From positions 1-64,000 of the forward strand of contig JBEPVF010000006.1 in the NCBI GenBank assembly GCA_041691135.1: 64,000 bases of DNA, written 5' to 3'. The notes under the pieces were generated by a model. That model was not told the DNA's origin. It searched no databases and worked only from the letters and a program-made list of their open reading frames with translations. The stretch is from Candidatus Peribacteria bacterium (GTDB taxonomy: Bacteria; Patescibacteriota; Gracilibacteria; Peribacterales; Peribacteraceae). A program made the translations under genes and the position numbers. Each line of letters starts with the position of its first letter. The first letter of the stretch is position 1. Positions 15,521-21,207 of this stretch are shown in pieces.

Positions 15521-15601
15521 AGCGCCAACGGCGCAATCGATACCAGCCTGGGGCAAAGCCCCAGGTCTACGGGCCAGCGCAAAATGAGGGCTGAAAGCCC
15601 G
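15521..15601 (+). repeat. Palindromic repeat family B
   Basis: AGCGCCAACGGCGC...TACCAGCCTGGGGCAAAGCCCCAGG...AGGGCTGAAAGCCCG. Confidence 0.8.
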
Positions 15602-15656
15602 GCCTATCTCACGCCACCACGCCTATATCTTGGCGGGAATACGCGCTATCTCCCCG

Positions 15657-15971
15657 TTATTTTTTGTCCGAGCTGGCGGCGGCCGCCGGAGCAGCAGCAG
15701 CCACGGGCGCAGCCGTTGCCGCAGGCGCAGCAGCCGCGGTCGTGCTGGAGTCGGTGCTCTTGCTCTCGGTCCCAGACGAGGCCTTCGGCTTCGCGTTGCC
15801 ATAGCCGTCCGCGTACCATCCGCCGCCCTTGAAGCTGATGGCAGGCGCGGAGACCACGCGCTCGAGATGTCCGTTGCAGAACGGGCATATGGTGATCTCA
15901 GGGTCGGAAAACTTCTGTATTTTCTCGGTGCGGCGATGGCAGGCAGTGCATTCGTATTCGTAGAGCGGCAT
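15657..15971 (-). CDS. FmdB family zinc-ribbon protein
   Basis: MPLYEYECTAC...CPFC...FKGGGWY. Confidence 0.92.
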   Translation of the reverse strand: MPLYEYECTACHRRTEKIQKFSDPEITICPFCNGHLERVVSAPAISFKGGGWYADGYGNAKPKASSGTESKSTDSSTTAAAAPAATAAPVAAAAPAAAASSDKK

Positions 15972-16037
15972 TGCGGAGTCGTTTCCTATCTGTCCAGGTA
16001 CAGCTCTATTTTATAGCCTCTGGCAAGGGCGCTCGCG

Positions 16038-17642
16038 CTACAGGTGGGAATCGCTGCTCCGCTTGCGCCACACCGCCTTCACCTTAGCCCGCCACCGCTC
16101 ATCGAGCGCCACCAGCGTCCACTCCACGCGAGGCGACAGATAACGCAGCACCACCTCGGTCGCCGGATGCACCCGCAGCGCGGGAGCCACCAGATAAAGC
16201 TTCGGGGCCTCCGCCGACAATCGCACGCCACCAAAGTATCCATGCCGCTGAAACTCGCCCAGCCCAGTCATCGGATCGGGATTCTGCAGATGATGCCAGC
16301 GCACGCGAATCCAGTAGTCCAATCCCTGCAAGGCGAGGTGCAAATCCTCATCGGCTTTCAGCTCAATCACGGCGAGCCTGCCATCATCGGTTACGCCCAG
16401 CAGATCGAGCATGCCGCGATCCGCCGCCGCGAACGCCGGAACCTGCGTATAAACATGCGCTGCGTTCAGGTGCGCATCCAACGGCTCGACATCGCGCCGC
16501 AGAACGCTCTCCAGCCAGCGCTCCGGCTGCATTCGGTACAGCGGATCGCGGCGGTCTCCACCCACCGCGCGCCGCGCAAACAGCCGCGCCACCAGCTCCC
16601 TCAACTCCGCCTCGTTCTCGTCCGTCAGCGGAGTCTCGTTCGCGCCTGCGCCAAACGTAATCTCTTCGGCGCGGTTGAAGGAGCTGCCCGCATAGCCCGT
16701 GCGAATCCGCGCAAACTCCAACCCGTGCAGCAGAAATGCCATCTCGGTTCCGCTGCGAATCTTCTGCTCGACGGCTTCGCGCATCGGCTCCGGCACCAGC
16801 GACCTCACCCGCGCAGCCGACTCGCTGAACCGCTCCCGCGCAGCGTCCACGTTCGGCGCATGCATCAAGCGTGTGGTCAGATTGCCGTGGTCTGCGGCAT
16901 CCTTTTGCTCCAATTCTTCGGATGCCTGGTCCAGCTCCCACAACTCCCATTGGGCCGCATCGGCATTCAGCCAGGCCAGCCGCGACAAGGTTAGTAAAGA
17001 TGTTCCACGTGGAACAAAAATCTTCAATCCATGGTACAATCTCCGACCGTTCCCCGACTCGCGACAATGCTGTAGCCATAAAATGCCCAACGTCAGGATT
17101 CCATCGACGGTCGCCTGCGTCTCCTCTTCATTGACGGCGACGACGGCCCAGGCCTTCTGCCCCTGCAGCAGCGATCCCCGCGCATACGCTGGTCCAAAGC
17201 TCTTCTCTAAATCCATGGCGGTGCGAAACCCATCCGGCTTCCATCCGTCGAAGTTCCGTTCGAGCACACGCTCCAGCACACGCAGATATTTCACTCGCGT
17301 CGCCTCGCGCGTCGAAGGGGTACGCCGATCCTTGTCGGCGGCAAGCTCCAGCGTCTGCGGCTTGGTCTGTCCAAAGCGATGCGTGCTCAGCCGCAGCACG
17401 CCGTTGCGCAGCACCGTTCCGCTCACCCGCCGGACGAGATTGCGCTCCTCGCCCCAGAGATGCAGCGTGCATCGCCCATGCTCGGTTGCCAGCGAATATT
17501 TCGCCTCGCGCATGTCGAAGAGCACCTTGCCGTCTTCGAGCACGACTGCCTTCGGATGTTCGGCAAGAAACCCTTCGAGCGTGGCGGCAATCTGTTCTAC
17601 CGTTTGCTCGGGCTCCGCGATTGCCGTGCGCGACGATCTCAT
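16038..17642 (-). CDS. Uncharacterised protein with C-terminal PD-(D/E)xK (NucS/RecB-like) nuclease domain
   Basis: ERWLE...LDLLGVTDDGRLAVIELK...LQGLDYW; start set at MRSS, just after the upstream gene. Confidence 0.72.
   Translation of the reverse strand: MRSSRTAIAEPEQTVEQIAATLEGFLAEHPKAVVLEDGKVLFDMREAKYSLATEHGRCTLHLWGEERNLVRRVSGTVLRNGVLRLSTHRFGQTKPQTLELAADKDRRTPSTREATRVKYLRVLERVLERNFDGWKPDGFRTAMDLEKSFGPAYARGSLLQGQKAWAVVAVNEEETQATVDGILTLGILWLQHCRESGNGRRLYHGLKIFVPRGTSLLTLSRLAWLNADAAQWELWELDQASEELEQKDAADHGNLTTRLMHAPNVDAARERFSESAARVRSLVPEPMREAVEQKIRSGTEMAFLLHGLEFARIRTGYAGSSFNRAEEITFGAGANETPLTDENEAELRELVARLFARRAVGGDRRDPLYRMQPERWLESVLRRDVEPLDAHLNAAHVYTQVPAFAAADRGMLDLLGVTDDGRLAVIELKADEDLHLALQGLDYWIRVRWHHLQNPDPMTGLGEFQRHGYFGGVRLSAEAPKLYLVAPALRVHPATEVVLRYLSPRVEWTLVALDERWRAKVKAVWRKRSSDSHL
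17001..17016. other. parS centromere-like site
   Basis: Perfect palindrome TGTTCCACGTGGAACA, matching the bacterial parS consensus TGTT(T/C)CACGTG(A/G)AACA. Confidence 0.85.
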
Positions 17643-17650
17643 GCCGCCAT

Positions 17651-19245: not shown

Positions 19246-19253
19246 GGAATAAG

Positions 19254-20696
19254 ATGACAATCCCCTCCGCAGACCACAAGCGTTATTTCATCGAAAAGCT
19301 GGGAATCTCCGAACGCCTGATGGAACGTTGTTTGGGCGAGGCGCTCTCCGCAGGGGGAGAGTATGCTGACCTTTATTTTGAGTCGGTTACATCGACATCC
19401 CTGGGCATTGATGAGTCTTTGGTCAAGTCTGCCAGCCAGGGCATCAGCGTCGGCTGCGGCATCCGGGTTCTGAGCGGCGAGCGCACCGGCTTTGCCTACA
19501 CCGACGACCTTTCGAGCGAGCGCCTGCTGAAAGCTGCCCGCACCGCTGCCCTGATCGCCAGTGGCCCGGCGAAGAAGCTGGCGCATGGGTTTACCCATAC
19601 CGAGACGCCGACGCTTTATCCCGTAGCAGGAGCTACCTCGGATGCGGAGATTTCTGAAAAGCTCAAGCTCATCCAGCGGGCCGATAAGGCTGCCCGCGCG
19701 TATGACTCGCGTATCGTGCAGGTTCGCGCCGGTTTCAATGACGAGTTGCGGCGCATTCTTGTAGCTGCTTCGGATGGCACCTTTGCCAGCGATACGCAGC
19801 CGCTGGCGCGGTTGAACGTCTTCGTGATTGCAAAGGACGGGCCTAATATGGCTCGCGGCACCAGCGGCGGCGGCGGACGCGTGGCGCTTGATTTCTTTGA
19901 GGGCAAGAAAAGCCCCGAACATTATGCCCGCGAGGCTGCGCGTACGGCGATGCTGCAACTCGGAGCCGTCGATGCTCCCGCAGGCGAGATGGAAGTTGTG
20001 CTTGGACCCGGTTGGCCCGGCGTGCTGTTGCACGAGGCTGTGGGCCATGGGCTGGAAGCCGACTTCAATCGTAAGAAGACCTCGGCGTTCGCCGGTCTGA
20101 TCGGCCAGCAGGTTGCGTCAAGTAAGGTCACGGTCGTCGACAACGGGACCATGCCTAATCGTCGTGGGTCTTTGAATGTCGATGATGAAGGAACGCCCAC
20201 GCAGGAGAACGTTCTGATCGAGAACGGCATCCTGAAGGGCTACCTGACCGACAAGCTGAGCGCCCGGCTGATGGGTACGGCGAGCACCGGCAGCGGACGC
20301 CGCGAGAGCTACCAGGCGATCACCATGCCGCGCATGACGAATACGTACATGCTGAACGGCGACGACATGCCCGAGGACATTATCAAGAGCGTGAAGCGCG
20401 GGCTGTATGCCGTGAACTTCGGCGGCGGCCAGGTGGATATCACCAACGGCAAGTTCGTCTTCTCGGCCAGCGAGGCCTACCTGATCGAAGACGGCAAGGT
20501 AACGCGGCCGGTCAAGGGTGCGACGCTGATCGGCAATGGCCCCGAGGCGCTGAAGTACGTTTCTATGGTGGGCAATGATCTTGCCCTTGATGAAGGCATC
20601 GGTACCTGCGGCAAGAACGGTCAAAGCGTTCCTGTCGGTGTGGGCATGCCTACCGTGAAGCTCGACCGCATGCTGGTTGGGGGCACCGGCCAGTAA
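19254..20696 (+). CDS. tldD: Metalloprotease TldD
   Basis: LLHEAVGHGLEAD, DDEG, PRMTNTY and GTCGKNGQSVPVGVGMP. Confidence 0.95.
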   Translation: MTIPSADHKRYFIEKLGISERLMERCLGEALSAGGEYADLYFESVTSTSLGIDESLVKSASQGISVGCGIRVLSGERTGFAYTDDLSSERLLKAARTAALIASGPAKKLAHGFTHTETPTLYPVAGATSDAEISEKLKLIQRADKAARAYDSRIVQVRAGFNDELRRILVAASDGTFASDTQPLARLNVFVIAKDGPNMARGTSGGGGRVALDFFEGKKSPEHYAREAARTAMLQLGAVDAPAGEMEVVLGPGWPGVLLHEAVGHGLEADFNRKKTSAFAGLIGQQVASSKVTVVDNGTMPNRRGSLNVDDEGTPTQENVLIENGILKGYLTDKLSARLMGTASTGSGRRESYQAITMPRMTNTYMLNGDDMPEDIIKSVKRGLYAVNFGGGQVDITNGKFVFSASEAYLIEDGKVTRPVKGATLIGNGPEALKYVSMVGNDLALDEGIGTCGKNGQSVPVGVGMPTVKLDRMLVGGTGQ

Positions 20697-20780
20697 GCCG
20701 GATAAATTTTGATTTGATTTTTTAGATCTCATGGAATCGAACCCATGCGCACAGCACCAGGCAACACATCGAGGTGAACC

Positions 20781-21089
20781 ATGGCAGTCGAACGCGAAAA
20801 ATTTTATGAGTGTGAAGTGAAGCGTCGTCGCGTAAAGGCCACCGGTGGCTATGAGCCGTTCTGGAAGGTCAAGATGATTGCCGACGCTCTCGTCGATAAC
20901 GATACGGAGTTTCGCTGCAAGAGCTGCGGCGGTCCGCTCAAGGTCTTCCGCCGCAATGTCGAGAATGCGCCGCCGCCGCACGTCGAGCACAAGCTGAAGA
21001 GCGACTCGGAGTATTGCGCGGCAGGAATGCATTTTTTGAAGGCGACGGATGGTCGCGAGGCTCGTCCTTCGCAGGCTCCGGTTCAGTAA
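20781..21089 (+). CDS. Small hypothetical protein, probable Zn finger (CxxC...H...C)
   Basis: SD GAGGTG; FRCKSCGG...PHVEH...EYC. Confidence 0.75.
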   Translation: MAVEREKFYECEVKRRRVKATGGYEPFWKVKMIADALVDNDTEFRCKSCGGPLKVFRRNVENAPPPHVEHKLKSDSEYCAAGMHFLKATDGREARPSQAPVQ

Positions 21090-21126
21090 GAAATTTCAGG
21101 GGAACGTCCGTGACGGGGAGATGGAT

Positions 21127-21207
21127 CGGGCTTTCAGCCCTCGGCGCTGCTCCTCCAACATCCCTGGGGTTTTGCCCCAGGCTGGTATAGGGCGCGCCGT
21201 TGGCGCT
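21127..21207 (-). repeat. Palindromic repeat family B
   Basis: Reverse-complement match to 15521-15601. Confidence 0.8.

Follow-up and report, generated by a model that had tools for sequence, protein, structure and literature searches.

A skew flip of origin-type polarity beside a parS site in a misbinned Acidobacteriaceae contig: probably a boundary in a mosaic-skew chromosome

Does a switch in strand composition that has the polarity of a replication origin, and lies close to a perfect parS site, mark the origin (oriC) itself? The question is raised by a 64,000-nucleotide (nt) stretch (positions 1 to 64,000 of contig JBEPVF010000006.1, hereafter C6; the whole stretch is referred to as the window) from a metagenome bin of 35 contigs and 1.74 Mb deposited as Candidatus Peribacteria bacterium (GCA_041691135.1). 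In the bacterial paradigm (E. coli, B. subtilis), oriC coincides with the GC-skew minimum, carries DnaA boxes and an AT-rich unwinding element, and usually lies beside dnaA. A first-pass annotation of the window had proposed that an oriC, uncoupled from dnaA, may lie in the region where the + strand turns from C-rich to G-rich. Here, we report that the flip is real, has origin-type polarity and is independent of gene strand. Most probably (about 0.75) it is a local boundary, some 0.15 Mb from dnaA, within a chromosome whose skew is mosaic. The proposed oriC was not supported: the arms of the flip are short, the contig is of foreign source and such flips are frequent in the Acidobacteriaceae.

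The skew flip and the source of the contig

To separate replication-type from gene-strand effects, bulk GC skew was calculated in 2-kb windows and fourfold-degenerate third positions were scored on the + strand. Bulk skew ranged from -0.04 to -0.16 at 9-19 kb, crossed zero at 19-20 kb and reached +0.13 to +0.31 at 20-34 kb, with more peaks at 38-42 and 46-50 kb. The four hand counts of 60-nt lines in the first-pass annotation (11041, C24/G11; 16561, C32/G12; 23881, G27/C12; 47641, G27/C7) were reproduced exactly on recomputation. It had put the change, by eye, at about 18.7-21 kb; the cumulative G-C minimum within the window was at 18,683 and the third-position cumulative minimum at 20,960, where skew rose from -0.11 in a small open reading frame (ORF) to +0.37 in the 5' part of PmbA (change point 20,960-21,300).

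Fourfold-site skew averaged -0.23 in the 11 genes at 9.8-21.1 kb (-0.26 in seven plus-strand genes, which lie at 10.8-21.1 kb, and -0.19 in four minus-strand genes) and +0.44 in the 21 genes at 21.3-50 kb (+0.41 in 12 plus-strand genes and +0.49 in nine minus-strand genes, the latter at 30.9-49.3 kb). The difference between the two groups was significant (Mann-Whitney, P = 1e-5), and the claim of a C-rich left and a G-rich right side irrespective of gene strand was borne out on both strands. Gene orientation also changed as described, with 10/15 ORF picks left of 19.2 kb on the minus strand and 12/13 at 19.2-39 kb on the plus strand. Such amplitudes are foreign to the remainder of the bin: over 853 two-kb windows the median absolute skew was 0.040 and the 95th percentile 0.119, and seven of the 15 windows with absolute skew above 0.18 fell on this contig, at 22-50 kb. 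The origin-type polarity of the switch was thus confirmed, but the left side is a short, weak patch of ~11 kb, bounded on its own left by a second, opposite flip near 9.7 kb, beyond which skew is weakly plus (1-9.7 kb, mean +0.16, six genes).

As genes are mostly minus to the left of the junction and mostly plus to its right, transcription or codon usage of divergently oriented gene groups might be thought to make the skew in place of replication history. We regard this as hardly credible and rejected it, because the skew is the same on both gene strands, as the strand-wise means above demonstrate, and is reversed between species. The same orthologues are uniformly plus in one relative (L011, +0.40 to +0.85) and uniformly minus in another (L037, -0.43 to -0.78).

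Sequence comparison places positions 1-50.1 kb in an Acidobacteriaceae chromosome, misbinned into a small-genome candidate phyla radiation (CPR) metagenome-assembled genome (MAG). TldD, encoded beside the flip, was found in 0/30 GTDB relatives, which span the genus to the class of the bin and have genomes of 0.7-1.6 Mb. The best 80 of 591 TldD relatives in the species-genome collection (the TldD loci, numbered with L) were nearly all labelled Acidobacteriaceae or Acidobacteriota (78-96% amino acid (aa) identity), and the few rows among them with other labels were MAGs (L017, L024, L055). These matches were led by 'Acidobacteriales bacterium 59-55' and included the finished chromosome of Tunturiibacter empetritectus M8UP27; the nearest relative of the window would be the MAG 59-55, with Tunturiibacter, Edaphobacter and Granulicella next. 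The bin has a single DnaA, on contig C1, which was 34-38% identical to nine Acidobacteriaceae DnaA proteins, which were themselves 74-96% identical to the Tunturiibacter protein. By tetranucleotide composition, the first 60 kb of C6 grouped with the end of C9 and roughly a dozen small contigs, away from the main bin. Contigs with a C6-like signature and higher GC were C9 (last ~20 kb), C15, C19, C20, C22, C24-C27, C29, C32, C34 and C35, which are probably contaminants too.

The window does lack dnaA, as the first-pass annotation observed. Since the bin's only dnaA comes from a different organism, this absence is a binning artefact that says nothing about the origin, and it no longer counts as a sign of uncoupling. 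For the same reason, the contig being foreign to the bin, the bin contains nothing by which to place the origin of the genome to which C6 truly belongs.

Skew and synteny among the relatives

The closest relative (G038) carries the same flip in a different arrangement. Its contig C3 holds window 113-18,166 (721,265 down to 703,858) directly beside window 23,006-27,495 (702,508 down to 697,218), such that the UvrC-like-to-BamD-like block abuts the DinB/parS-gene block. The cassette of Rv2525c-like, TldD, small ORF and PmbA genes lies ~25 kb off in the other orientation (window 18,371-22,675 corresponding to G038:C3 675,612-680,110). The flip was found at 702.5-703.0 kb, with skew of -0.51 in the UvrC-like gene versus +0.24 to +0.35 on the DinB side. 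The arm matching the minus arm of the window extends for only ~31 kb (703-734 kb) and then fades, and the examined ~318 kb (566-884 kb) is otherwise of opposite sign, except for two further short patches. dnaA lies within this span at 861.8 kb, ~157 kb from the flip, and is also without a flip. Persisting arms on both sides of a skew minimum were therefore found neither in the window (~11 kb) nor in G038 (~31 kb in 318 kb of mostly opposite sign).

Synteny breaks surround the flip. Those versus G038 fall at the cassette borders (18.2-18.4 and 22.7-23.0 kb), a break at ~16.0 kb is common to the window and G038, and one at 27.5-28.2 kb was seen versus G036, G038 and G031. Window 1-16,000 had no match in the 80 TldD loci, though those loci share left flanks among themselves. 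The gene order across 16-27.5 kb is that of most relatives. The first-pass annotation had named an inversion breakpoint or misassembly as its alternative and a synteny break in relatives as evidence against an origin. The breaks at ~16.0, 18.2-18.4, 22.7-23.0 and 27.5 kb count in part against an origin by that measure, and a rearrangement boundary is nearer the mark, but the change point itself lies within a block that is collinear in several relatives. As adjacency is preserved across the change point, a plain inversion cannot account for the flip. An inversion between the inverted repeats at 15.5 and 21.2 kb, positions that correspond to the coordinates given in the first-pass annotation, was likewise rejected, since the minus patch extends to 9.8 kb and the gene order equals that of most relatives.

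Flips of this kind are frequent in the lineage. Across the Acidobacteriaceae, synonymous-site skew reached about +/-0.8 independently of gene strand, in blocks of 10-60 kb that alternate in sign. Mosaic skew was seen in loci L133-L172 (the Tunturiibacter empetritectus M8UP27 chromosome), L102-L121, L122-L132 and L173-L188. In the finished isolate chromosome of T. empetritectus, four minus-to-plus flips occurred in the 220 kb around dnaA, with third-position skew to +/-0.7 on both gene strands, and twenty 20-kb samples ~240 kb apart alternated in sign, giving no two-arm pattern. The flip at 4,215 kb, the only one tested, coincided with a 51-kb synteny jump versus G040 and with breaks versus G036 and G039. 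Two further relatives have a flip at TldD that forms the edge of a 15-30 kb patch: a minus block of ~15 kb left of TldD inside a mostly plus contig (G037:C66, 207 kb), and a plus block of ~25 kb right of TldD inside a mostly minus contig (G036:C1, 1.25 Mb). In G036, dnaA and the parS cluster are on a different contig from the flipped TldD locus. The window thus shows what is expected of a rearrangement-type patch, namely a block of opposite sign that is limited in length, and its lineage has many blocks of this kind. In the portion of the literature covered by our search, no paper was found that describes where the origin lies in Acidobacteria or a mosaic skew in this group, which is no proof of absence.

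Third-position skew was measured in the nine orthologues of the 16.0-27.5 kb block in all loci, and in 23 loci (window included) TldD, PmbA and at least two genes on either side were retained with order and orientation unchanged. In 15 of these, the right-minus-left difference was +0.17 to -0.28 (13 of them below 0.2 in size, and most of those 13 with one clear sign on both sides of the junction). The arm at odds with the wider contig was, in every flipped genome, the weaker one, and the change points of the flipped loci were within ~700 bp of the PmbA start. Because a weaker arm at odds with its surroundings fits decay to a local equilibrium, a historical cause is preferred. The UvrC-like gene was ~0.1-0.4 more positive in third-position skew than its neighbours in several species; as a cause of the step this offset was rejected, being too small for a step of 0.7-1.1.

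Several observations weigh against a boundary of purely historical and local origin. The right-minus-left difference was strongly positive in four of the 23 loci (L012 +1.12, L017 +0.86, window +0.73, L055 +0.49) and weakly positive in another four (+0.23 to +0.37). A strong plus-to-minus step was seen in none of them (lowest -0.28), where chance boundaries should show both polarities. The cut-offs for strong and weak steps were chosen after seeing the data, and the relatives are not independent. A FastTree phylogeny of TldD+PmbA (74 rows, with local supports only) put the strong cases at four separate positions and not in one clade. The window and G038 alike have the selected parS site 2-4 kb away from the flip. 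The block at 16.0-27.5 kb is collinear in L009-L012 and L017 with the change point (20.96-21.3 kb) inside it, and a simple inversion should have broken it. By per-gene aa identity, genes to the left and to the right may differ in their closest relatives, a hint of recombination that shared composition can also produce, and a comparison of L016 with L021 for recombination was uninformative. Finally, the genes of the window are ORF picks by codon-position GC and not gene-caller output, and the DnaA-box test described below does not discriminate.

Three readings are left for the recurrent step: homologous replacement with DNA from an oppositely oriented relative, its endpoints lying preferentially where gene conservation is highest; an old step that persists as a slowly fading fossil; or real fork divergence. 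The local-boundary reading would combine the evidence as follows. The flip at ~21 kb would be the place where a minus block that is short and weak (9.8-21.1 kb) meets the plus orientation prevailing in the region, and not a site where forks start today. The two sides may have reached their present replication orientation at different times, either through rearrangement or through replacement with DNA from a relative that carried the locus the other way round, and the weaker side would still be drifting toward its local equilibrium.

An assembly chimera of two related populations that carry the locus in opposite replication orientation, with the join inside the conserved TldD/PmbA genes, could produce the same picture. 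The bin does hold sequence of at least two organisms, and TldD and PmbA are the most conserved genes nearby. Against this, the step is also present in other, independent assemblies, one of them a 1.25-Mb contig (L012), and G038 has it with the same blocks on either side. Window-to-G038 nucleotide identity is alike on both sides (79-87% for most genes left of the flip, 78-87% right) and the gene order matches the majority of relatives, which leaves a chimera very improbable.

Origin features and the parS site

No DnaA box (TTATCCACA within one mismatch) was found at 14-24 kb; six occurred in the whole window, with no cluster of at least four within 600 bp. The first-pass annotation was therefore right that a canonical DnaA-box cluster is missing, and the control dnaA regions of relatives were equally without one, as no cluster was detected in the 220 kb around dnaA of Tunturiibacter (G031) or the 180 kb around dnaA of G032. 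With boxes equally missing beside the relatives' dnaA, this test cannot discriminate between origin and non-origin. In G031 (region 4,179,900-4,184,500), rpmH and dnaA are divergent across a ~770-bp spacer of lower GC. E. coli-type boxes were not found in this spacer or in the kilobase upstream of the relatives' dnaA (L087-L098; one relaxed match in total in 10 relatives), and neither the spacer nor the sequence downstream of dnaA revealed a clear origin motif when k-mers and AT content were inspected. The Acidobacteriaceae oriC would appear not to be obvious from sequence.

Other origin features were sought at the change point. No AT-rich stretch or non-coding region of origin type was present there: the 216-bp spacer of the window (21,090-21,305) is G+C-rich and filled by a stem-loop repeat at 21,118-21,214, the equivalent spacers are ~72 bp in L012 and ~92 bp in L017, and no non-coding element at the flip was common to the window and G038. 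The first-pass annotation had suggested locating dnaA and parAB. Neither dnaA, dnaN or rpmH nor rsmG-parAB was among the window genes, and TldD lay 121-798 kb from dnaA in seven relatives. Conversely, window genes had no match in the dnaA neighbourhood of G031 (220 kb) and one short match in that of G032 (180 kb).

The junction might nevertheless be a present or recent site of bidirectional initiation, whether a dnaA-distant oriC, a secondary origin or the decaying fossil of an ancestral oriC. The origin-type polarity on both gene strands speaks for it, as do the recurrence of the step at one conserved junction, never reversed and in at least four tree positions, its survival in G038 despite the relocated cassette, the nearby conserved parS and the weaker arm, which would suit a decaying fossil step. 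The relatives' dnaA regions also lack a box cluster, so the Acidobacteriaceae oriC is not yet placed. The arms, however, do not persist in any of the four genomes (window, G038, G036 and G037), L012 and L017 leave no non-coding space for an origin, the window spacer has no AT-rich stretch and shares no element with G038, and the G036 flip is on another contig than dnaA and parS. The collinear loci in which left and right hardly differ count against it as well. With about one minus-to-plus flip per 55 kb in the isolate chromosome, the prior for any one flip is ~1%. Taken together, we judge an initiation site at this junction unlikely.

A more far-reaching version would make the junction of TldD/PmbA and the UvrC-like gene a recurrent divergent-fork site in the Acidobacteriaceae (an active dnaA-distant or secondary origin, or an ancestral oriC fossil), with the mosaic skew arising from an unusual replication regime and parS tied to the junction. 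We hold this to be a little less likely still. If true, that regime might, for example, involve initiation at several sites or an initiation site that moved often, with rearrangement history being only part of the cause of the mosaic, and the lineage-specific parS 2-4 kb away would be functionally tied to the junction.

The perfect parS site reported by the first-pass annotation at 17,001 was confirmed. One window site came within two mismatches of TGTTNCACGTGAAACA, with 0.12 expected by chance, and TGTTCCACGTGGAACA at this position is the sole such site in the 1.74-Mb bin. It is located within a 534-aa ORF and is not intergenic; its codons end in A or T, whereas the gene is otherwise rich in G+C at third positions. 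A search for TGTTNCACGTGNAACA in 10 Acidobacteriaceae genomes returned 1, 1, 1, 2, 2, 2, 2, 4, 10 and 21 sites, every one exactly TGTTCCACGTGGAACA, and the reversed-pattern control returned none in the same genomes. Sites were 14-22 kb from dnaA in 6/10 genomes. In Tunturiibacter (G031), they flank a gene read by eye as rsmG, and the main cluster was read as rsmG-parA by eye, without a family search.

At the homologous position in G038 (G038:C3:705,061-705,076), all 16/16 bases are identical within a 139-nt alignment of 78% identity, this being one of ten parS sites in that genome. Twelve other aligned relatives have no parS match there; only the central CC(A/G)CG(T/C)GG is present, imposed by the conserved PRG codons, and none of the 80 TldD loci carries a parS site. 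On these comparisons, the site at 17,001 is classed as a genuine, selected, lineage-specific parS and a predicted ParB-binding site. According to the consulted excerpt of one study, most parS sites sit in the ori domain (PMC7022226). The G038 site, 157 kb from dnaA on the same contig (~3% of 4.9 Mb), fits this rule but does not place oriC. With G038 as proxy, the window probably comes from the origin-proximal domain. Position is not strict within the family, as G034 has 21 exact sites over most of its chromosome (G034:C1). Copy number also varies widely in the Acidobacteriaceae, and G038:C2:242369-243928 is a tight cluster of eight sites in 1.6 kb.

Under the local-boundary reading, the site at 17,001 would have been gained inside a coding gene and then kept by selection. 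It would add to the main cluster beside parAB, and would mark an origin-proximal region, not oriC itself, on the order of 0.15 Mb from dnaA, a distance that we infer for the window's own genome. Beyond the window, a weak ParB_N-like match (26.5 bits) was observed at G000:C6:65748-65891, in a 78-aa frame with two internal stop codons.

Features of the window and comparison with known systems

The coordinates of the main features are collected in Table 1. From left to right, the window carries mfd, a zinc-dependent alcohol-dehydrogenase-family gene, genes for a periplasmic sugar-binding protein and a formate/nitrite transporter, gatB and a DUF3738 gene. These are followed by a Lys/Ala-rich histone-H1-like ORF, a zinc-ribbon ORF, the 534-aa ORF, a DinB-fold gene, the Rv2525c-like gene, TldD, a small Cys/His ORF and PmbA. 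The plus arm then holds a UvrC-N-like GIY-YIG gene, rpe, a BamD-like gene, sugar/inositol genes, a CarboxypepD_reg-type TonB receptor gene, hemY-like, hemH, hemE and ppa.

Table 1 Positions of skew features, genes, repeats and sites in the window
Feature	Position	Strand	Remarks
Minus-skew patch (+ strand C-rich at synonymous sites)	9800..21100	.	~11 kb, weak; bounded on the left too (1-9.7 kb, +0.16)
Stem-loop repeat (repetitive extragenic palindrome- or miniature inverted-repeat transposable element-like)	15470..15610	.	Inverted versus copies at 21,118-21,214 and 22,749-22,925; inverted pairs I1, I2, I4, I9; direct families D2, D3
Conserved 534-aa ORF hosting parS	16038..17642	-	Orthologues collinear in relatives, up to 86% aa identity
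parS TGTTCCACGTGGAACA, perfect 16-bp palindrome	17001..17016	.	Inside coding sequence, codons F-V-P-R-G-T on minus strand
Cassette: Rv2525c-like glycosidase-fold protein, TldD, small Cys/His ORF, PmbA	18219..22682	+	Pfam matches; contains the skew change point
Third-position change point	20960..21305	.	3' end of small ORF plus 216-bp spacer ahead of PmbA
Strong plus-skew arm	21306..50092	.	Ends at 3' end of tRNA-Pro
Stem-loop repeat, further copies	22749..22925	.	PmbA-to-UvrC-like spacer; families D2 and D3
UvrC-N-like GIY-YIG protein, ribulose-phosphate 3-epimerase, BamD-like lipoprotein	23024..27495	+	First genes of the plus arm
tRNA-Pro(TGG)	50016..50092	+	Start of low-GC island, end of plus arm
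Probable tRNA-linked island	50016-64000

The ORF that hosts parS had no Pfam or NCBIfam match. The cassette plus its flanks is collinear in L008-L012 and L017. The 435-aa UvrC-like protein (23024-24331, +) matched only the N-terminal GIY-YIG/UVR part of UvrC, below all cut-offs. To the left of the parS gene, a 110-aa Lys/Ala/Thr-rich ORF (15024-15356, +) has a 15-nt period (KKSAT/KKAAS repeats) and resembles histone H1-like nucleoid proteins, with a weak NCBIfam match below cut-off. The 126-bp spacer ahead of TldD (19128-19253) contains three TTTAC(C/T)GGTTAC-like motif copies, one of them inverted, that were recognised by eye and may be an operator. Short stem-loop repeats occur in many spacers, also at ~29.5, 32.65, 38.8, 45.1 and 46.3 kb. 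Within the bin, two core repeat motifs were confined to C6, and other short repeats of the window had dozens of copies in G038 and G031 at 80-98% identity.

The plus arm ends at tRNA-Pro. GC content is 0.59 before and 0.50 after this gene, skew vanishes at its 3' end (50,092) and homology to G038 stops at exactly the same position, beyond which (window 50,100-64,000) a single weak 320-bp match was found in five relatives. Downstream are GH106, a GH101-like protein, a CarboxypepD_reg TonB receptor and TPR/BNR proteins. An 85-aa ORF adjoining the tRNA had no NCBIfam match, and no integrase was identified. A chimeric join at 50.1 kb was considered and rejected in favour of a tRNA-Pro-linked island; positions 50016-64000 are probably such an island.

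The locus carries a caution: a clean origin-type step together with a perfect parS is not an origin when the contig is misbinned, the arms are short and the skew of the lineage is mosaic. The CPR bin should be cleared of C6 and of roughly a dozen small contigs that resemble it in composition. The parS of the Acidobacteriaceae is the perfect palindrome TGTTCCACGTGGAACA, of which one lineage appears to have fixed an extra copy inside a coding gene, and this intragenic copy may serve as a simple ori-domain marker in fragmented soil MAGs. The family's synonymous-site skew, even in a finished isolate, is patchy and of unusual strength, and several species share a flip of one polarity at a single conserved junction. 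If the mosaic holds up, origin calls based on skew, and binning based on skew or composition, would be unreliable for this abundant soil group.

Comparison with known systems places the parts of the window as follows. The distal stretch resembles tRNA-linked genomic islands in its drop in GC and in the exact end of homology at the 3' end of tRNA-Pro. It differs in that no integrase was identified, and here the near end alone is described.

According to excerpts of the source consulted, local skew reversals caused by inversions, insertions or misassemblies underlie skew-based assembly checks such as SkewIT (PMC7717575). The window and its relatives resemble such reversals in having a short opposite-sign block within a region of prevailing sign, synteny breaks nearby and, in the isolate, one flip at a synteny jump. 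They differ in that the change point lies in kept gene order and a single polarity recurs, which plain inversion does not explain.

With a canonical bacterial oriC, the window shares the minus-to-plus step independent of gene strand and a nearby parS. It differs in its short arms, in having no non-coding AT-rich region and no box cluster, in not being near dnaA in any relative, and in that the same kind of flip is frequent elsewhere in the Acidobacteriaceae. Distance from dnaA is not in itself without precedent, as Caulobacter Cori, beside hemE, is reportedly a dnaA-distant origin.

The parS site also has known counterparts. In the part of the source consulted, the same 16-mer is P. aeruginosa parS2/parS3 (PMC4368675), to which the window palindrome is identical. 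Relative to known chromosomal parS clusters, the window site would be an extra, lineage-specific copy away from the main cluster, with no ParB on the contig. B. subtilis is said to have intragenic parS sites as well, and the window parS is likewise intragenic, its sequence being kept where the flanking bases have diverged.

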